Assembly: GCA_964016885.1 (NCBI GenBank)
Contig: OZ024741.1
Span: 158,038,001-158,102,000, forward strand
Source: Eledone cirrhosa
Taxonomy: Eukaryota
DNA: 64,000 nucleotides
Reading direction: 5' to 3'
Below are positions 1,718-46,368 of the stretch, in pieces. Within the stretch, counting starts at the first letter, position 1. The number at the start of each line of letters is the position of its first letter. Position numbers and translations under genes: made by a program. Below the pieces are notes generated by a model, which worked only from the letters and a program-made list of their open reading frames with translations, was not told the origin of the DNA and searched no databases.

Positions 1718-3512
1718 CACTTTGTAACATATTTTTTGTTCCCTGGTTCTAAGTGTCATTTCCTGGTTTGTTATATCCCATTATTATAAAAAAAACACTA
1801 TTATTTCATCAGAAGTTTGATATTTCAAAATTTTCATATTTTTCAAGAAAAAACACATTTTTTTTTAATTTATCAGTTCATATAATTAAAGCAACAGAGT
1901 ATATATTTATTTTATTACACAAGCTGGTCAAAAGCAAACAAGTAAAAGCAAATAACACTTATAAAGCAACTTATACATGTCAGAAATGACTGGATTTCCT
2001 GGATTTGCGGTTGTAGTCCAGGTCGCATTCCCGCACTAGCCCCCAGATATAGTCCCCCATCATTTTTTCATTGTATTGGCCCTGGTACCTCCGCTCTATC
2101 TCTTTCACATCTTGGTGGAATCGTTCGCCTTGTTCTTCTGAGTAGGCGCCCATATTGTCCTTGAATTTTTCCAGGTGAGCGTCCAGCATATGGAGTTTAA
2201 GCGACATCCTGCATCCCATGGCGCCAAAAGCCTTTATCAGATCCTGCACCAGCTGCTGGTAGTTTTCAGCTCTGTAGTTGCCCAGGAAGCCCTTAACAAC
2301 TGCCTTGAAACAGTTCCATGCTGTTCTCTCAATCCTATTGAGCTTATTGGAGAACTCGGTAGACTCAAACACCTTCTTTATCTGAGGTCCAACAAAATTT
2401 CCACCTTTGATTTTGGCCTCAGATAACTTGGGGAAGAACTCAAGAAGGTACTTAAAAGTGGCTGATTCTTGGTTGAGAGCCTTCACAAACTGCTTCATCA
2501 ACCCCAACTTAATGTGCAGTGGCGGCATGAGCACAATCCTGGGATCAACCAGTGGCTCCCACATGACGTTCAGGGTCCCAACTACAAATTCTGTTCGCTG
2601 CTCCCAGTTCTTTCTTTTGTCGTGGTCAGAGGTGGCTCTGCTGTCTCAAAGGCAGAGGAAGCATTGGAATTTGATAAAGCCTCCTTGGAGTCCAAGCAGG
2701 AAAGCCACTATCTTGAAGTCTCCAATGATTTCCCAATTCTACTGGTTGTATTGCAGAGCTTCCAAGAGGACTTTCACACTGTAGTAATCTTCCTTCAGGC
2801 AGACTGAATGAGCTAGAGGCAGTGTCGGGAACTTGTTTCCATTGTGGAGGAGGACAGCCTTCAAACTTGTGGTGGAGCTGTCTATAAACAGCCGCCACTC
2901 CTTGGGCACAAACGGCACTCCAATAACGTCAAACAGTCCATGAGAAAGGTTTGTGTCGACTTCTCTGACTTGTCACCTGCACTTCCTCCTTGACCAAGTT
3001 CCACTGCTTCATCCTGGAGACGAATGCTTGTCTTGGAAAATACTTGTCTTGGAAAATGAATTTGATATGCAATACAAAATAAATATAGGAAAGGGAAATA
3101 CATATTTAAATAATATAAAAGAACACTAATCATACTAATGAAAATTCGTGCTTAAAACACAACTTACCCTTTATTCAGGGTGCAAAAATCCAGTATCAAT
3201 AAATCTCTTTAATCCACTTTTTAACAATTTTATACTTTATTGCACTTTTATCATTTTCTTTAGGTATTACTTTTATTTTATAATTTTAATTTAACCTGAA
3301 ACATATAAAAAAATAATTTAACATAAGCAAATTAAACATACATACAACGTAAAATCCAGCATATAAATAATTATAGTGAATAGCTCAGAATTTTTACAAA
3401 CCCAAACTTTTAACTGTTTAATAGCACTTTTTTTTTATTTGGGACCTAAACAACACAAAAAAAGTGATTACAAGCCAGGAACAAAGAAAAAAAAATCTTT
3501 TGCTACATGGTG
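1718..3512 (-). mobile_element. Chapaev3-like (CMC) DNA transposon, defective copy 1
   Basis: Transposase motifs PPLHIKLGLMKQFVKAL and SEEQGERFHQD (ORF 1980-2564). CAC...GTG termini with imperfect TIRs. Near-identical to 9486-11431, with internal deletions near 2940 and 3030. Confidence 0.8.
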
Positions 3513-4224
3513 TAATCTGCCGCCTTTTTCGTAAACAGATACAAAGCACTCTACAATTTGTATTCCTTAGGATTTTCTCTGTAAGATATCAACCGGAGTT
3601 TTAGTATAATAAATAAAAGAGACGGTTTTATTTGTACATCTTCATTTATTACCTAATTCCATTATATGTATTACAAAGATGCAAGGGTAGTTACATAATA
3701 ACCCTCTGGCATGTTTTCATTAGATGGAGTGAGATGTATTTTCCTATCCATTGATATGTTACTGGTTTTATGTGGTGTTAACATCCTTATCCAGTACCCA
3801 TATGAATAGTTTTGTTATCCTATCAGTTAGATGATGAGTGGCAGACAGTATTGTTGCTGGCATTAGAGATTATAAGTAGGCTACAGTGTCAAATTACCAG
3901 AGGGGTCATTTATTTCTTAGATTTGGATTTAATGAACTATTATTATTTTTTTTTTTTTCTTTACTTAATTCTACGTACTTATATTTCTATCCTAGGCATT
4001 AATTATTGGATAATGAGGTTACAGTGAAGCTATGTATTGATGTATGGTTTAGTAATTATTTTATGGTCTAATAGATTACTTATGGAAGCATTAACTATAT
4101 ATTCTGTGGAAAGTTTTAGAGATTCTGTGCATGCATATCTTAAATATGTCGAGGTATTTATTAATAACTTTGTTTCTTCTATTTATAATGGAAGATATGG
4201 AAGATATAGACCCATTTATATATA

Positions 4225-8280: not shown

Positions 8281-9485
8281 CACAAACATCGTTATACCGA
8301 TGCCACAATCAGTATAATAAGAAATACTAGTTACCATTTCCAACACAGCTTCAGTACGCATTCTCGATAGATATTGATCTATACCTGTGATGACACGCCA
8401 TTGACGTCATCACTTAATTCACTCATTTCTTCTCATCCATACAATAACATCATCTCTTTTGCTCTTTTATTCTTTCAGTCATTTGGCTGTGGTCATGCTG
8501 GGGCATAACCTTGAAGTAATTTTTTTTGTTGATCATATCGACCCTAGTTCTTTTATTTTCCAAGTCTAGTATTTATTTTCTCAATCTCTTTTCTTTCTGT
8601 TGAACCGATAAGTTACAGAACATCAACACAGACACAGCCATGAAAACAAAGAGAAGGACAAACACATACATGCACACACACATATTTATATATATATGGT
8701 AGACTTCTACAGCTTCTATCTACCAAATTTCAGTCACATGGCACTGTTCAACTAAAGGCTATAGAAGACACTTGTCTAAAGTTTCATGCAGCAAGACTGA
8801 ACACAGAAACACATGTCTACAAAGAAATCTTAACCACACAGCCATGCCTGTACATCAAATAAACGAAAAGAGAAACAAAAAAATGGATACGGTTAAGAAG
8901 TTTACTTCTTTACTTCACAATTATGTGGTTTAAAATTCGATTCCACTGCTCAGCCACTCAAGCAGATGTCCTCTAACATAGATTTGGGTCGAACAAAGCC
9001 TTGTTTGCTTTGATAAAATTTGGTAGACAGAGATAATATGGAAGTCTGTCAGAGAAACAACTCCTGTTCTTGAGTAGTTAAGAAGTTTACTTCACAACTA
9101 TGTGGTTTAAAATTTGATTCTACTGCTCAAACACTCGGGCAAATGTCCTCTAATTTAGTGTTGGGTCAAACAAAGCCTTGTTTGCTTTGATAAAATTTGG
9201 TAGACAGAGATTGTATGGAAGTCTATCAGAGAGACCACTCTTGTTCTTGAATGGTTAAGAAGTTCACTTCTCATCTATGTGGTTTTAAGTTTGATTCTAA
9301 CATAATCCGTGGTTGAAAATGTCTGCTTTATCCCTTTAGCATTCAAACCGGCTGTATCCGGCCAGAACTCTCTCAATTCTCTCTGTTTAAACCAGCTGTA
9401 ACTGGCTGCTCACACCTACATTAAGGTATTGTTCTCAAAATAAATAACATCAAAATCTCATAGATTCGATTTTATGAGATAATTA

Positions 9486-11431
9486 CACAGTGTAACAAAA
9501 ATAATTTTTTTCTCTGTTCCTGACTTGTAATCACTTTTTTGTGTTCCCAAATAAATAAAAAAAAGTGCTATTAAACAGTTAAAAGTTGGGGTTTGTAAAA
9601 ATTCTAAGCTATTCACTATAATTATTTGTATGCTGGATTTTATGTTGTATGTAAGTTTAATTTGCTTATGTTAAATGATTTTTTATATATGTTTCAGGTT
9701 AAATTAAAATTATAAAATAAAAGTAATACCTAAAGAAAATTATAAAAGTGCAATAAAGTATAAAATTGTTAAAAAGTGAATTAAAGAGATTTATTGATAC
9801 TGGATTTTTGCACCCTGAATAAAGGGTAAGTTGTGTTTTAAGCACGAATTTTCATTAGTATGATTAGTGTTCTTTTATATTATTTAAATATGTATTTCCC
9901 TTTCCAATATTTATTTTGTATTGCATATCAAATTCATTTTCCAAGACAAGTATTCTGATGAAGAGGAGAAGATGGATGCTGAGGACTTGGATTACCTGTC
10001 TGAGGTACCAGAAAAAGTTCCTCACTTCCCAAACCAAAAAGAAGTCAATGACTTGGTCAGGGATATGGGTCTGACCAAGTCCAATGCAGAGCTATTCTTC
10101 TCCAGGATGAAGCAGTGGAACTTGGTCAAGGAGGAAGTGCAGGTGACAAGTCAGAGAAGTCGACACAAACCTTTCTCAGGCTTTTACACTCTTAGGGATG
10201 GCCTCTGTTTCTGCCATGACGTGCCTGGACTGTTTGACGTTATTGGAGTGCCGTTTGTGCCCAAGGAGTGGCGGCTGTTTATAGACAGCTCCACCACAAG
10301 TTTGAAGGCTGTCCTCCTCCACAATGGAAACAAGTTCCCGACACTGCCTCTAGCTCATTCAGTCTGCCTGAAGGAAGATAACTACAGTGTGAAAGTCCTC
10401 TTGGAAGCTCTGCAATACAACCAGTAGAATTGGGAAATCATTGGAGACTTCAAGATAGTGGCTTTCCTGCTTGGACTCCAAGGAGGCTTTATCAAATTCC
10501 AATGCTTCCTCTGCCTTTGGGACAGCAGAGCCACCTCTGACCACGACAAAAGAAAGAACTGGGAGCAGCGAACAGAATTTGTAGTTGGGACCCGGAACGT
10601 CATGTGGGAGCCAGTAGTTGATCCCAGGGTTGTGCTCATGCTGCCACTGTACATTAAGTTGGGGTTGATGAAGCAGTTTGTGAAGGCTCTCAACCAAGAA
10701 TCAGCCGCTTTTAAGTACCTTCTTGAGTTCTTCCCCAGTTATCTGAGGCCAAAATCAAAGGTGGAAATTTTGTTGGACCTCAGATAAAGAAGGTGTTTGA
10801 GTCTACCGAGTTCTCCAATAAGCTCAATAGGATTGAGAGAACAGCATGGAACTGTTTCAAGGCTTAGGGCTTCCTGGGCAACTACAGAGCTGAAAACTAC
10901 CAGCAGCTGGTGCAGGATCTGATAAAGGCTTTTGGCGCCATGGGATGCAGGATGTCACTTAAACTCCATATGCTGGACGCTCACCTGGAAAAATTCAAGG
11001 ACAATATGGGCGCCTAGTCAGAAGAACAAGGCGAACGATTCCATCAAGATGTGAAAGAGGTAGAGCGGAGGTACCAGGGCCACTACAATGAAAAAAGGAT
11101 GGGGGACTATATCTGGGAATGCGACCTGGACTACAACTGCAAATCCAGGAAATCCAGTCATTTCTGACGTGTATAAGTTGCTTTGTAAGTGTTATTTGCT
11201 TTTACTTGTTTGCTTTTGATAAGCTTGTGTAATAAAATAAATATATACTCTGTTGATTTAATTATATGAACTGATAAATTTTTAAAAAATGTGATTTTTC
11301 TTGAAAAATATGAAAATTTTGAAATATCAAACTTCTGACCACAAACCCAAACTTTTGATAAAATAATAGTGTTTTTTTATAATAATGGAAATGATACGTA
11401 GAACTGGGGAACAATAATTATGTTACATGTG
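9486..11431 (+). mobile_element. Chapaev3-like (CMC) DNA transposon, defective copy 2
   Basis: TTA|CACAGTGTAACA...TGTTACATGTG|TTA (3-bp TSD). Transposase fragments 9921-11167 (WRLFIDSS..SLKAVLLHNGN, IKLGLMKQFVKAL) with stops and frameshifts. Inserted inside a piggyBac-like MITE. Confidence 0.85.
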
Positions 11432-19590: not shown

Positions 19591-20410
19591 TATTGTACAT
19601 ACTCAAAATTAAATTTACATAAATCAAGTAAAACATTTATAATGCAAGAAAGATAACTCTTGTAAGATGCTGCTGGGAAAATGACAGCGCACTTAAACAA
19701 AGTTTTGTCGTCTGTATTACATGCTTGCACACGCAACACACACACTCTTTATAATATAACTATGCTCTACTGCACCAAGTATCGAGTACTCGGTTGAGAA
19801 CTTAATCGAACCAGTTTAAAATTGATTCCTTCCTGATTTATACACACACACACACGCACACACACACACACACATACACACATACGCACACACACACACA
19901 CACATATCTCACCCTTCACTCACTCACTCTCTGTTACTACCTCTCCTCCTCCTCCTTCTTCCCGTTTGACCTGTGCGTAATTCTTTTCTTTCGCGCGCTT
20001 GGTCAGGCTGGTTCGCCTTTTTTCTCTCTCTCGTCTACGATTTCACAGAACTTATGTTCACCGAATTCACAGACTAGATTCCTTCTTCCTCCCGTTAGAC
20101 CTGTACGGAATTCCTTCCTTGCTCACATTCCAACCAGGTTTGATGGTCTTTATTCTCTCTCGTTCACGATTTCACCGAACTTATATTCATGGAAATTTGG
20201 GACTTGACTCGTTCTTCCTCATTTTTCGTTGCTTCACCATCCTTGTTTGTTTACACTCTCGCTGTTCCCTTTATTTACGTGTCCCAACGACTTTCTTTAG
20301 CCGTTGCTCGCACCAACCGGAGGTATATGGTCTTTAAAGCGAAGTAATACCGATGATGGTTGGAAGATCACTGATGAAGGACCACTTTATTCATATATAT
20401 ATATATATAT

Positions 20411-21406
20411 ATAAAGAATTAATATCTAGTAACATATATATACATACAGATGCATATCAATGCTAGCAAATATATAGGTTTTGTCTTAGTAACTTTGTGG
20501 TTCAATGCATGGGGTTGCAGAACAATAATATGAGAGACGTAAAATAAGAAAATTATAAAATTAACTTACTTACTAAAATATCACTTCCAACTAATTAGTT
20601 TCTGGAATGGAATAAATATATTTTCCGAAGAAGATACAGAGAAGCATTCCGTCGTCAGGGAGGTCCATTCTCATCTAAGTATCCAGGCAAAGCGTGGACA
20701 CTGGAAACTTATTAAAAAATAATTCAGTGGATAGGAAATAGCAAAGCGTGGACTGAATTCCTAGCCATTGAGAAAATCACTGCCTCTGCGTCGGTGGCAA
20801 ATTCAAAATGAATCAATCACGTGACATCGAGGTCAATCAGTGGAAAGTGGTTTGCTAATAAGACAGCGGCCTGCTACCATAGCAGCAGTCATGGCTAATA
20901 TTGCTCGACAAATAATTTGGAGATAATTATAAAGAATTAATATCTAGTAACATATATATACATACAGATGCATATCAATGCTAGCAAATATATAGGTTTT
21001 GTCTTAGTAACTTTGTGGTTCAATGCATGGGGTTGCAGAACAATAATATGAGAGACGTAAAATAAGAAAATTATAGCAAACCACTTTCCACTGATTGACC
21101 TCGATGTCACGTGATTGATTCTTTTTGAATTTGCCACCGACGCAGAGGCAGTGATTTTCTCAATGGCTAGGAATTCAGTCCACGCTTTGCTATTTCCTAT
21201 CCACTGAATTATTTTTTAATAAGTTTCCAGTGTCCACGCTTTGCCTGGATACTTAGATGAGAATAGACCTCCCTGACGACGGAATGCTTCTGTATATCTT
21301 CTTCGGAAAATATATTTATTCCATTCCAGAAACTAATTAGTTGGAAGTGATATTTTAGTAAGTAAGTAAGTTAATTTTATAATTTTCTTATTTTACGTCT
21401 CTCATA
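20411..21406 (-). mobile_element. Non-coding HHR element: 518-nt monomer + partial tandem + inverted segment
   Basis: Direct repeats start at 20411 and 20929. Inverted arms 20529-20857/21074-21406. (TA)n on both flanks. Confidence 0.8.
21267..21348 (+). ncRNA. Type I hammerhead ribozyme (mirror copy on - strand at 20583-20664)
   Basis: acctcc-CTGACGA-c-ggaatg...cattcc-a-GAAA-CTAATTAG-T-T-ggaagt. Palindromic stem III ACTAATTAGT, GUU triplet. Confidence 0.75.
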
Positions 21407-21419
21407 TATATATATATAT

Positions 21420-22210
21420 CATCATCATCATCATCATCGTTTAACGTCCATTTTCCACGCTAGCATGGGTCTGGACGGGAATTGTCCCACTTGAGGCAAG
21501 ATTGGTTGTCTTGCTCAGGACTGTCTGGCGGGTTTTCTACGGCTGGATGCCCTTCCTAACACCAACCACGTTTACAGTGTGGACTGGGAGGTTTTTACCG
21601 TGTTACCTACACGGCCACATTACAGCGTGGACTGTGTGTTTTATTGTCGTGACACCTACACGTCTGGCGGGTTTTCTACGGCTGGATGCCCTTCCTAACG
21701 CTAACCACGTTTACAGTGTGGACTGGGAGGTTTTTACCGTGTTACCTACACGGCCACATTACAGCGTGGACTGTGTGTTTTTTTGTCGAGACACCTACAC
21801 GACCTCATTTCTTTCGGACTGGATGTTGTGGTACCAACATAACTTCACATTTAAGGGGAAGGGGTAGTGGGGGTGGGGGTGGGGTATTTTGTTAGAGGTG
21901 CCTACTGACTAGGTTTCGCTTTGTACTTAGGCAAGGCGGGTCTTATGTATAACTGTGTAGCGCCAAAGATCTCGGTCCAGTGACATTGTCTTGGAGAGGT
22001 GTAAGTGTGTGAGGTCGGAATTTATCAAGTCGCCCCAGGTTTTTCTGGGTCTGCCTACTCCGTGGCTACCGTCTATTTTTATCGCCCTGCACTTTTTTAT
22101 ACAGCTGTAATCTTTCATGCGCATCACGTGACCGTAGCAACGTAGTCTTCTCTCGAGTAAACAACATCTGATCCCTCTTATTCCTAATTTCTCCCTTAGT
22201 TCGTTTATGC
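21420..22210 (-). mobile_element. RTE LINE 3' end with (GAT)n tail
   Basis: GVGRPRKTW motif. The 3' UTR is shared with 28990-30420 and 31300-32410 and contains an internal ~140-bp tandem duplication. Confidence 0.8.
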
Positions 22211-22968
22211 TTTTATATATATATAGAGAGAGAGAAAGGGGGAGAGAGGGGGGGAATAGAAATGCAATGACGCAGAAAACTTGTTAGAAGTAATTCTCCT
22301 CGGGATTTAAACATGAAATGATATAGTTACAAATGAATTATATTAAATTGAGCGAATATTTATATTTATAATATACAGGAGATAACTCTTGTAAAATGCT
22401 GCCAACAATTTATAGGATTATTTCCCCTTGAAATTTAATTGGCATGCAGCATGAATAATATTTTATAGTTCGTATAATACGCATATATATCATAACACTA
22501 TCTCTATTTATAATTGGTTCTACTTTGGACCCAAGGCCAGCAATTACATCTGTGCGTGACTGGTACTTTATTTAATCGACCCCGTAAAGATGAAAGGCAA
22601 AATTAAACTCGGCGAGATTTGAACTCAGAATGTAAAGGACCAAAACTCTATGCCGTAAAGCATGGTGTCTGATGCTCTGCCAATCCACCGGCTCTCTAGA
22701 GTGCAAGGAAATAACTTCGATCTAATGCAGCAGAACAGTTACAGAATTATTCGATAAGTCTTAATACTAACCCTAACTTTATATAATTGAAAATGCATCA
22801 AATTATATTTAGTAGAAAAAAAAAAAAAAAAAAAAAAATCAATATACACAAGGGAGATAACTTGTAAAATGCAACAGAAAATTGCATTTTATTTGCTTAT
22901 AAATTAATTGGCATACTAGATGGACAAAATTCTGTATTACACGTGCTTATACTAAACCTACATTTAAC

Positions 22969-39744: not shown

Positions 39745-40245
39745 AGCTTGCTTCGTAGCCTGGCTGCTGGATTTCCCATGTCCTTGTATTTATAATAACC
39801 CTATAGCTAGAAGGATGTGTATATGTGTTGTTTTATGGGTAGCTATCTGTGTTTCCTCTGTCTACAAGCTGGGGTCACAGGTCAAGTGGTATGTACTTTT
39901 ATCATACTTGTTTCTTGACATGACAATCGTGGGAACTTCCAATAATAGGTGGTCCCAGAGGCGAGAACTCTTAGATTCGGTTTCGAATCTTCGCCGGTAA
40001 GACATAGGAATATTCCGTTACAATGCAATAAGATAGCAGACAGAGAGAATGTGAGCTTAGTGTCCGGCGAAACGGAAGTGTCGGCGACCGGTGACCGGCA
40101 ACCGAGCTGGATGTCCTGGAGGTGCTCTGCGAACCGGTCCACCAATCGCCGTCCTGTGTGTCCCATGTAGACAGCTCCGCATAGCATGCAGTGGAGTCCG
40201 TAGACAAGGCTGGAGGAGGTACAGCAGAAGGAGTGTCGGACATGA
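39745..40245 (-). mobile_element. Penelope-like element 3' end: GIY-YIG endonuclease fragment + degenerate minimal HHR
   Basis: FCCTSSSLVYGLHCMLCGAVYMGHTGRRLVDRFAEH in ORF 39882-40256. On the - strand ~39969-40002: tctta-CCGGCGA-agattc-GAAA-ccgaa-TC-taaga. Confidence 0.8.
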
Positions 40246-41268
40246 TTCAATTGCATGATAGATCAGCTGAGAAAAATCGTGTTATATTGAAAAGGTTAAT
40301 TCATTGTGTTGAAATTTTGGCTTGTCAAGAATTATCATTTCGAGGACGCGATGCAAGAAAAGGATCACACAAGGGTAATTTTCTGGCTCTGTGAAGCAGT
40401 AGCAGAATACGATGATTGTTTAAGATCACATTTAGATTTCGTGAAGAAAAATGCTAACTACACATTCTCTGGACTTTCAAGTGATCATTAATTGTATAGC
40501 TGCTACAATTCAAGGTGAAATTAAGGCAATGATCGAAAAGCATCATTTGTTGCTGTTATGTTTGATGCGACTACGGATCTTCGAATGAAATCTCAATTAT
40601 CACGTGTTTTGCGATTTATTGATGAGAAGGAAAAACCTCAAGAAAGGTTCTGAGGATACATCGATTGTCAGTAAAGATAGAAGAGATGCATCACTGACAG
40701 AAGTTTGAAAATGTGTTAATGAATTCAACTGTGGTAAACAAATTCATCGCACAAACATATGATGGAGCGAGCGTGATGGTTGGACATTTGAACGGAGTGA
40801 AAGCAAGAATAAAGGAGATTTTTGGTGCGAACATCATGTTTGTACATTGTTATACGCATTCACTTAATCAGCTACTCTCTCAATCAGCTTCAAGTATTCG
40901 TGAATGTCGAATTTTCTTCCAAACTTTAAAAGGAATTTAAAATTTTTTTTGTCAAAGACAACGGCTTGCAGGCAATTTCCAGAATTACCTGAGGCATGTT
41001 GGAATAATTCATCTCGACAGGTATCTATTTTATCCGATAAAATTACTGTTTTCTTAACTATTTTCAACGATATTGGAAATTCCAGAGGATTGGAGTGCTT
41101 CCGAATTAGCACAGGCAAGGGGATTTGTTGCAATACTAGAAGATTTTCAGTTTAAATTTTTATTAGTAGTTTTTTTTTTAAATATTGAGTGACTCAGAAA
41201 TTCTGTTTTCGATTCTTCAAAAAAATCCACTTGATATTTTGAGGTGCATTCATGAGGTTGAAAACTTC

Positions 41269-43689: not shown

Positions 43690-45815
43690 TTACTTCTGTA
43701 ATCCGTCAAGTAATCCATGATACATTTTTAAAAAAGGCGATAATGGATGGAAAAGCGATGAAACTGTTGGCGGAAAATGTTCATGAATCTTCACTTGAGA
43801 ATGTCGATGGGAAGCTTCAATGCCTGTCAAGGCATTCAAAGATATGCTTATGTCCCATACCTATCTCATCAATGATTAGCAGGTCAGCTTGCTGCATAAG
43901 TTTACCTGTATCATCCCTCTTTGTGAAGAAGCAAGTTGATTCAGCAGTCACATTGAGAGGAATCTTGCACTTGGAATGAAGAGTTCTACCTTTGTGAAGC
44001 AAAGTGGCTGCTATTCCAGATATGGCAGTGGCAAGTGCAATTTTTTTTTTTAGATTGGAGGTAATCCAATAGGATGTTTATGACATAGGCCTTTCCTGTA
44101 CCTGCACTTGGATTCAAGCAGAAAATTCTGCCTTCATTTTCCTTTACAGAGGTGATTACATTTTGAAAAATAACCAGTTGCTCAGGATTCAATGTTGGCA
44201 GAAGTTTATTTATGTTTGCTTGCAGTTGGTGTGTATTGAAAACAGTTTCTGCCATAAGAACCCTGTTGATTTCTGGTATGGCAACAATAGTTGGGTCTGG
44301 CCAAGGAAGTCCGTAGTTGGCATGAATGTCCAAGCCATCATGTTGAAGTTTTTGTTGGATCTTCTGTAGAATAATCGGCACGGTTTGCATGGACATGACT
44401 TGCTCATGACGTTCATGCATGATATCCTCTGCAAGACAATTCTTCCATTTCTCCCAGAACTGCAGAGGGTCATTTGGCATGCTGTACAATAAAATGGTGC
44501 AGAAGACCTCAAGCGCAATGGATGAGGCCTCTTCCATAGCTTTGTCTTTTTCTCCATCTTCATCTAACAGACCAAGTTTCCTGGATGCTTCTTGGAATGT
44601 TGGAAATTCAACTCCTTCAATTTTCCTCAAATCTTTGTATGAAGTTGACCTAGCCTTGTGATGTAGGATCATCTTGAGGTAATATAATTCAGATTGATGT
44701 CTACTGAGAGATACTGTTGGAATACGTCCAAGAGATTCACTCATAAATTGTTGATCACCATCCAGATGTCCCTTTTTTCTTCTTTGCCACTATTTGTTTG
44801 TCCAAGTGAAATGGCAAGGCAACTTTTCAACTGGCGGTTTTCGATGATGTAATGGAAATTTATAGATTCTCCAGAATGCTTCACTGGCTGAGATGTACCG
44901 TGCATTGATATAGGTCTCAATCTCATTTTGGGCATGGATACAATTTCCTTGATCATCCTTAATAGTGAAAGTGATCTTGTCTGATCCTTTAGTGATGTAC
45001 TTATATAAGTACTTAACAGCCTTGACACTGTGGACAACCTCACAATTGATGTGGCACTGATATCTCAATGAGAGGAAAGGGTTGTATGGAACAATCCAAC
45101 GATTATCAACAGTAAATTCTTGACCTTTAAGTTGGATTGTATGGGTGTGACTACCATGCTGTCTATCCCTTCTTCTATACTCCGGAAAGGAATTTTCTGC
45201 AACAAATGTGGATTGTCTGAATGACTTGGGATAACTTTTTGAGCAATGGCGTTGTTGTCCTAGCCCTTCCATACATGAGCACATCATATTAGCTTGTCCA
45301 CATGGGCCATGAATGTTGCAGGATGTGATGATCTTATGCAGAAATGGATTGGTTTCTTTATTAGGAATCTCACAGTACACTACCTGATCAATGGCGTCAG
45401 CAGTTTTGGGCTTGCTATCTTCAGCCATTATCAGCAGAATATGAGCATGAGTGAGGCCTCGTTTTCTGCTACTCTATTGTAGCACAATGAGCCACAACTT
45501 TTCCTAGGACATTTTTTTTCAGTATGTCATCCATGAAGTTGTCATACTTGATCTTGAAGACTCTTGCATAAATATCAGGACGGTCTCTAGGTTCTTCACC
45601 AGGGTGCAAACTATTTTTTATTTCATCCCAGTTAGGGTTAGTTGTTACCGTGATGAAATAAGATGGCTTTCCCATGTGTCGAACCACAGTCATCGAATTC
45701 TGAAAGCACTCACTGTAGAAGCGAGTGGAACCATAGATTGAAGGAGGAAGAACAATTCTCCGGCCTGCACTTGTTTCAGACGCTAGACTGTGCCCATGCT
45801 GGAGTACCACGATTA
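43690..45815 (-). mobile_element. Helitron Rep/helicase pseudogene
   Basis: Rep motifs GKPSYFITVTTNPNW, QKRGLTHAH and VPYNP..HINCE..KYLYKYITKG. PIF1-like motifs AGTGKA and LIIDE. Frameshifts. Confidence 0.9.
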
Positions 45816-46368
45816 AAGGATTTTCTTGACCTCAATTCCAGTACATATATTTTAAAATCTAGTATTTATTTTATTGAACTCTTCTATTCTCTTTGAAACG
45901 TGTGTGTGTGTGTGTCTGTGTTCATATGTATGATGGTACCCTATTGCTTGCGACGAGGATTCTTCCAGCTAGGTTTCTCAAATGGAACTGCCTGAAATTA
46001 AGGTGAGAGTGTCTGAGCATTCCATAGACACGTATAACGGGGGGTTTCAGGGTGGGACTACATTGGTTCTTCGACTTACTGGCAGAGTAGACTTTATTTT
46101 ACTTCAGTGGAGAGAAGAAAGGCGAAATAAAGTGTCTTGCTCAAGAACACAACGCACTGATGGGATTTGAACTCTCGACATTACAATCACGAGACACACA
46201 CGGACATAAACACACACACATACACAGATACAGTAACACACATATGCACACACACACATAAGCAAACAGATACACGCACACATACACACATACACACATA
46301 CACATATATATACACATAAACACTTATGCACACACACATATACATACACATAAACACACCACACATAC

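Follow-up and report, generated by a model that had tools for sequence, protein, structure and literature searches.

The insertion at positions 20411-21407 of the window, the whole 64,000-nucleotide stretch of Eledone cirrhosa contig OZ024741.1 that was analysed, is one insertion of an abundant, dispersed family of non-coding repeats with units of about 470-570 nt. With little doubt, this family is a non-autonomous element of the Penelope-like (PLE) type, and double priming at two fixed sites of the unit very probably accounts for its direct and inverted arms. The best explanation, which is considered reasonably probable, is that a dispersed non-coding hammerhead repeat was inserted by a borrowed Penelope-like RT/EN, which primed once from each of the two strands of a cut TA microsatellite and copied a continuous RNA of 518 nt that was probably circular. 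The observed basis of this reading comprises the copy number, the TA targets, the fixed ends, the pairing of one end of each kind (A+B), the read-through of the predicted cut site, the agreement of sibling units and the covariation of the hammerhead. The first-pass annotation, made from the letters of this stretch, had read the locus as a non-autonomous mini-element, a reading that the present analysis supports.

Structure of the insertion

A 147-bp sequence had been described as repeated 518 bp apart, and this direct repeat (20411-20557 and 20929-21075) is exact, with 100% identity. Its designation as the tail of the element does not stand, as the two fixed ends of the family lie 117 nt apart, so that the optional tail is 117 nt long and 147 nt is an incidental breakpoint of this copy. 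The inverted copy placed at 21074-21406 is present, corresponds to unit positions 447 to 118 with 98% identity and overlaps the direct arm by 2 nt, while its actual right end is at 21407. Runs of (TA)n adjoin both outer ends of the insertion. Of the unit, some 70 bp had been regarded as unique; 71 bp (unit positions 448-518) are single-copy within the locus, while genome-wide they are part of the repeated unit. The reported lack of an ORF is borne out, none of the six reading frames of the circularised unit being open for more than 59 aa. The features of the locus are as follows (a dot denotes no strand).

20393..20410,., left half of the (TA)n target microsatellite, boundary uncertain by a few nt
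20411..21075, minus strand, arm A, 665 nt, the full 518-nt unit plus 147 nt; 3' end (hammerhead-sense strand) at fixed end A, 20411
20411..20527, minus strand, optional tail, 117 nt, from fixed end A (unit position 1) to fixed end B (unit position 118)
20411..20928, minus strand, full non-coding unit, 518 nt, 35.5% GC
20583..20664, minus strand, predicted type I hammerhead motif 1, core CUGACGA at 20658-20652
20928..20929,., head-to-tail junction 518/1, with 556 exact genome matches (control 0)
21074..21075,., inversion junction, 2-nt overlap of the arms, equal to the median of 69 insertions
21074..21407, plus strand, arm B, 334 nt, unit positions 447 to 118; 3' end at fixed end B, 21407
21267..21348, plus strand, predicted hammerhead motif 2, core at 21273-21279, predicted cut after 21342
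21408..21419,., right half of the (TA)n target

A target duplication at 20393..20410 is inseparable from the TA run, and junction 518/1 is no special point of the unit but merely marks start site A. The circularised unit is predicted to fold at -113.4 kcal/mol with 63% of its nucleotides paired (z = -3.1), a stability reached by none of 60 shuffles, while no fold of the tail is clearly supported, single-sequence and alignment folds being different. A tRNA origin of the unit was rejected, as no tRNA gene was found by ARAGORN, and a bacterial promoter scan, irrelevant here, remained at chance level.

A dispersed non-coding family

Genome-wide counts were made in the 3.0-Gb genome. The similarity search with the unit yielded 2,078 first-look candidates, 40 of which were scored, with full-length matches at 93-100%. 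The exact 26-mer over junction 518/1 has 556 matches in the genome, while the B-end and A-end motifs have 1,042 and 358 exact matches, respectively (controls 0 in each case); these three patterns sample different shares of the subfamilies, and the ratio of their counts thus means little. Recurrence of the junction in independent insertions had been named as a check at first pass, and the matches found show that the junction is not local. Searches for core patterns with a matching helix III gave 1,599 matches for CTGACGA and 9,253 for CTGADGA (about 10,850 in total; controls 0).

From the fetched loci, 35 distinct cut-to-cut monomers of 471-571 nt were obtained, and the 13 monomers shown form a gradient of identity down to about 70% across the whole unit, indicating that the unit evolved as a whole, without an ORF. 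The first-pass annotation had also asked whether the unique part might map to the ORF end of an autonomous PLE; for the unit, neither PLE proteins nor the sampled PLE loci gave a match, and 12 PLE proteins compared with the doubled monomers returned no tblastn match at E <= 1. The repeats differ from LTRs in being partial tandems whose inner ends vary, and an array of up to 4.9 units is present at locus L041. At loci L075:1073-3430 and L178:850-2100, different subfamilies lie side by side in one TA run, pointing to reuse of the microsatellite; L178, which had been taken as a mixed-subfamily pair, is actually two insertions with a TA run between them. Contigs from three sequencing runs of unknown kind cover the unit in two runs and partly in the third, and are uninformative on expression, ends or circles; one 587-nt contig starts near the predicted cut site, contig starts being likewise uninformative.

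Two fixed ends and their pairing

On the hammerhead-sense strand, the fixed ends are A at unit position 1 and B at unit position 118, and every intact arm has its 3' end at A or B, adjoining a TA run, while its 5' end is variable. Set 1 consists of 81 loci selected by similarity, junction and HHR with the flanks ignored (six duplicates and L071, L075 and L076 are left out), and with few exceptions their fixed ends adjoin TA-type runs. It contains 52 inverted insertions, of which 47 pair A with B and five have a damaged end, with no case of A+A or B+B, and 29 single-armed insertions, namely 15 with A, 13 with B and one other. Set 2, which overlaps set 1, consists of 138 loci chosen solely by an intact A or B end (two more are without an anchor); among its 74 distinct inverted insertions, 69 are A+B, five have another, damaged or complex end, and like is never paired with like. 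A literature search, mostly outside subscription papers, found nothing on this family or on a strict pairing rule.

The two arms overlap at their junction by a median of 2 nt in the 69 A+B insertions, and in 7 of 69 inverted insertions (0.9 expected) the end coordinates of the two arms lie at most 3 nt apart, several of them at local palindromes. Such symmetric junctions and short overlaps fit the annealing of two same-sense cDNA ends. The A arm exceeds 130 nt in 53 of 69 inverted insertions and usually passes site B without a collision limit, and the lengths of A and B arms are uncorrelated; the arms were thus copied from two RNAs of one source or, with strand displacement, from a single RNA, and one shared circle would need such displacement. 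In L1 twin priming, the second priming falls at internal sites that vary, and there is no overlap of the arms. Two cDNAs from two target strands and joining through microhomology are shared with that process as it is commonly understood, whereas here the second site is fixed and the arms overlap in sequence.

The predicted hammerhead motif

Hammerhead motifs had been noticed on both strands at first pass, and both are recovered as predictions (cores at 20658-20652, minus, and 21273-21279, plus). The helices of motif 1 are predicted as follows.

20664-20659 with 20588-20583, minus strand, helix I, one mismatch in this copy
within 20583..20664, minus strand, helix II, 6 bp beneath a C.A mismatch, with a long loop containing an inner hairpin
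within 20583..20664, minus strand, helix III, palindromic, predicted GUU cut between 20589 and 20588

At its gathering thresholds, Rfam gave no match in the window, and the isolated motifs fold no better than shuffles (z +0.46 and +1.01), so that the hammerhead call rests on the core pattern and covariation. The alignment used for the latter comprises 31 motifs hand-picked from 61 distinct ones, which span the subfamilies and from which obviously damaged copies were dropped. In this alignment, the named structure shows 95.6% pairing and 70 double changes, a result reached by none of 500 shuffles, slid controls giving 32-49%, while two of five covariation measures fail to beat the shuffles (65/500 and 217/500). 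Helix II and its inner hairpin covary between subfamilies down to about 70% identity, and all four pair types occur at the second pair of helix II. The signal in helix I comes partly from a one-base shift between subfamilies, and the invariance of helix III in the alignment is by selection, as this helix was in the search pattern.

The C.A mismatch at the base of helix II is found in 196 of the 206 copies counted (duplicated loci included), and the base at the predicted cut site is U, conserved in 204 of the 206, the bases before it being fixed by the search pattern. The family motif also has an extra A between helix II and G12. With its C.A mismatch and the U at the cut, the predicted hammerhead may be a slow cleaver. 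It possesses the features of PLE minimal hammerheads, namely a palindromic helix III, an unpaired base after A9, a G-C pair at the base of helix II and covarying families; helices I and II are supported by covariation, yet the architecture is PLE-like and not canonical.

Template and mechanism of insertion

The predicted cut is 61 nt 5' of site B, and B arms have a median length of 353 nt and a maximum of 1,111 nt, 48 of 104 crossing junction 518/1. The first-pass proposal that reverse transcription runs past one unit agrees with the arms that are longer than a unit and extend through the predicted cut site, and this passage shows that the template was continuous across the cut. Arm stops are roughly uniform at 0.29% per nt, and 5' ends form no strong pile-up in any 20-nt bin of the unit; weak excesses at 161-180 (19 against 12.2 expected) and at 241-260 have P values of about 0.04 each, uncorrected over 26 bins. 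A breakpoint pile-up at 222-229 in set 1 (13 of 133 arm ends) was rejected, as it was not replicated in the end-selected loci (6 against 4.1 expected, P = 0.23).

Sibling units disagree at 3.4% of diagnostic sites in tandems and 3.8% in inversions, against 25.9% between insertions, while at private sites they differ by 1.9% and 1.7%, respectively, against 2.1% for unrelated copies. Siblings that share diagnostic sites and differ at private ones like unrelated copies are expected if they were identical when inserted. This agreement, which cannot separate one RNA molecule from two of the same source, and the read-through of the cut fit a circle, and also a long homogeneous multimer. The idea of two different RNAs per inversion is unsupported at the diagnostic sites and was dropped. 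All in all, the template is more probably circular than not. In 15 of 41 pairs of sibling units, the two bases at unit position 228 (window position 20638, in loop II) differ, with changes to all bases, as they do in 6 of 45 non-independent pairs from four new loci against a background of 2.6%, a rate that is elevated and weaker on replication; the position could be a site on the RNA that is misread by the RT. A-to-G editing scars were rejected, as there is no strand bias (124/27,233 against 198/38,042, P = 0.26).

According to the preferred reading, the hammerhead would cut tandem transcripts, probably in dimeric form since helix III is palindromic, and the products would be closed into circles. 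One RT would start at site A and one at site B, with one priming per target strand; each would stop at a roughly constant rate of about 0.3% per nt, some going round more than once, and the two cDNA ends would be joined via short microhomology, while a lone surviving arm would give a 5'-truncated single-arm copy. No autonomous partner sharing sequence was found in the sampled loci, so that the enzyme is assigned by its footprint only. A more detailed picture is put forward tentatively and is itself on the doubtful side: a protein-free 518-nt circle may have persisted through about 30% divergence and been copied by a dimeric Penelope enzyme with which it shares no sequence, one subunit priming at A and the other at B on opposite DNA strands, with the 117-nt spacing of the tail set by the shape of the RNA and not by linear distance.

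The formation of tandems by altered-core autonomous copies (see below) and the dispensability of cleavage in vitro in the compared parts of PMC11167929 mean that tandems do not prove circles. The same element and two-site priming could operate on an uncut linear multimer from a young tandem source locus, the hammerhead being weak or acting at another stage; this is unlikely, while retaining a considerable share of the probability. It explains the read-through of the cut site equally well, and it agrees with the insertion of a PLE in vitro without cleavage, where the compared parts of the study report no RNA ends seen at the cut (PMC11167929), and with the altered cores of young autonomous PLEs in this genome; the absence of a pile-up would be expected for a source of at least four units, which would rarely be copied to its 5' end. 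However, repeated 5' truncation should shorten arrays unless their length is regenerated, whereas arrays of up to 4.9 units exist (L041). Unit-specific differences are moreover not inherited across insertions, with 29 same-orientation recurrences of tandem-unit differences against 25 +/- 3 in shuffled data (P = 0.14), and the hammerhead fold has been kept by covariation over about 30% divergence.

Cutting of the RNA to linear monomers, with the RT, on reaching the 5' end left by the cut, jumping to the 3' end of that monomer or of another one, is improbable. The slight excess of arm ends at 161-180 lies just 3' of the cut, as such jumping would predict, but 155 of the 173 arms that reach unit position 160 pass position 190, the conserved base at the cut shows no added bases, and subfamily markers, which would be mixed between molecules, stay together. 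The first-pass annotation had instead explained the inversion by a template switch of one cDNA after it had circled the template, which would produce short junction overlaps just as well. A switching cDNA would stop variably, whereas the inverted arm has its outer end at a precisely fixed position in (TA)n, and this end is always of the other type; the A+B rule thus largely refutes this explanation, which is now very improbable, and the inverted arm is likely the product of a separate, second priming on the opposite target strand. Taken alone, this locus resembles a duplication plus inversion, which would suggest a local duplication, an expanding satellite or a DNA transposon with terminal inverted repeats. 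Dispersed junctions in their hundreds, flanks that are unrelated outside the TA runs, fixed outer ends with variable inner breakpoints and a covarying RNA structure refute these readings, which are practically excluded.

Autonomous Penelope-like elements in the same genome

Autonomous PLE families of the genome are provisionally named Neptune-like and Poseidon-like, by their motifs and not by a tree. In a 4.7-kb Neptune-like family, the two ends are separated by 41 nt, with one of each in all six inverted loci showing both ends, and a Poseidon-like family has ends about 44 nt apart, with one of each in four of four such loci; the Poseidon-like loci L418, L419, L422-L425 and L427 likewise have one of each end. 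Among the Neptune-like copies, L148:3715-8448 (group L146-L151) is a young 4.7-kb element with an extra upstream ORF of 455 aa overlapping the 784-aa RT-EN frame, and L146 and L148, the two copies read, carry a U3.A8 hammerhead-like motif with GCAAC instead of GAAAC. Several Neptune-like families carry U3.A8 hammerheads, and one of them has a helix II mismatch like that of the 518-nt unit. The youngest-looking Poseidon-like copies (L419-L427, e.g. L423:6266-6292, and L406, L411 and L414) have CCGAAGA in place of the CTGAAGA core of their relatives; these copies, with ORFs of up to about 900 aa, are still found as tandem and inverted insertions, and this family may do without cleavage.

The search for a partner used two PLE fragments, a GIY-YIG family and a Poseidon-like C-terminus as queries. 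The PLE loci scanned with the unit or a monomer profile (L091-L110, L121-L157, L188-L237 and L388-L427) are top matches and no census, and none of these sampled loci contains an autonomous PLE sharing sequence with the unit. Strong unit matches occur only as neighbouring copies in L205 and L422, which are read as separate insertions because of their opposite orientation. Two variant-core pattern searches were set aside, as their matches are read as deleted or variant copies of the 518-nt family (10 of 39 aligned, the rest judged by the matched text). A Neptune-like pLTR matched over 16 nt (E 0.06), which was dropped as chance, and a B-like motif in the Poseidon-like family is not among the ends of that family. 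Pfam gave no match on three PLE fragments.

Two further sequences with hammerheads were seen among these loci. L226:8061-9590 is a tandem of units of about 480-510 nt, each with a small type I hammerhead (CTGATGA ... GAAACTAGTA), constituting a second retrozyme-like family, while at L237:1735-2010 a short piece flanked by TA contains another hammerhead of a different kind, whose loop II is long and whose helix III is a 6-nt palindrome.

Comparison with known systems

The comparisons below refer to the compared parts of the cited papers. Judged by the features that can be tested in sequence, the family appears to work like a metazoan non-LTR retrozyme, i.e. a non-autonomous PLE. Metazoan non-LTR retrozymes are reported with units of 150-450 bp (Cervera and de la Pena 2020, PMC7229834) and, in a preprint on Xenopus, of 51-972 bp (Li, Clavereau and Pollet 2026, bioRxiv 10.64898/2026.07.22.740005); the 518-nt unit exceeds the former range and lies inside the latter. 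In the same preprint, 24 of 57 Xenopus retrozyme families matched known TEs, mostly PLEs, whereas the loci sampled here yielded no PLE homologous to the unit, and one of nine dimers cleaved in vitro. Its filter for two consecutive units would miss the present locus, which has one hammerhead motif per strand. The family shares with retrozymes the tandem units that are non-coding, low in GC and each provided with a type I hammerhead, the predicted self-paired circle and the coexistence with autonomous PLEs, of which retrozymes are there proposed to be circle-copied non-autonomous derivatives (PMC7229834; bioRxiv 10.64898/2026.07.22.740005). However, the retrozyme hammerhead is canonical and the present one PLE-like, inverted arms and two fixed ends are found here but are undescribed in the compared parts of these accounts, and retrozyme circles have been shown experimentally, while the circle of the present unit is a prediction from sequence.

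With EN+ PLEs, the family shares partial tandems, an inverted 5'-truncated arm, a tail at one end and microsatellite or AT-rich targets (Craig et al. 2021, PMC8557442; Frangieh et al. 2024, PMC11167929), the PLE tail being often at one end only (PMC8557442). In vitro, two RT start sites define the tail and both target strands are cut and extended, hammerhead cleavage being dispensable for insertion (PMC11167929); these two internal starts lie downstream of the hammerhead, as here. In contrast to EN+ PLEs, the 518-nt unit has no ORF, and its 117-nt tail is about three times the 30-40 nt reported as a typical value, not a strict definition (PMC8557442, PMC11167929). Strict one-of-each pairing is counted here, whereas start-site use in vitro showed no difference between the strands (PMC11167929).

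PLE minimal hammerheads (Cervera and de la Pena 2014, PMC4209133), for which a circle model of PLE tandems was proposed, share with the predicted motif the palindromic helix III, the unpaired base 5' of helix II, the G-C pair at the base of a long helix II, the covarying families and the low expected activity of monomers; unlike them, the present motif has the extra A before G12 and a U at the cut, and its loop II, which contains an inner hairpin, measures about 40 nt. The Chlamys non-autonomous elements, such as MRC1, are likewise non-coding and of PLE type, with pLTRs and multicopy head-to-tail insertions, but are found in green algae and resemble autonomous families at their 3' end (PMC8557442), a kind of partner not found here in the sampled loci.

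As this kind of element is already known, the surprise is limited and the value is mechanistic. The insertion route of PLE tandems and inversions and the circle copying of retrozymes have been proposed in the papers compared but not shown in vivo. The family provides thousands of small, readable insertion events under a strict A+B rule, which holds for two autonomous families of this genome as well. For the in vitro assay that already exists, it offers a compact RNA substrate whose start sites are predicted exactly. It also adds more than ten thousand predicted hammerhead motifs of a type that Rfam thresholds missed in this window.

Neighbouring features in the window

Just to the right of the insertion are a 139-bp tandem duplication (21523-21800) and, on the minus strand, an RT-like C-terminal fragment (21927-22283). 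Positions 1723-3516 and 9482-11427 form an inverted pair whose copies are 91-94% identical and contain broken ORFs, which look transposase-like. Further broken ORFs at 43986-45831 resemble a Helitron Rep/helicase. The region 39885-40262 (minus strand) contains a GIY-YIG-like fragment with no Pfam match, which by eye is similar to a GC-rich Neptune-like family.
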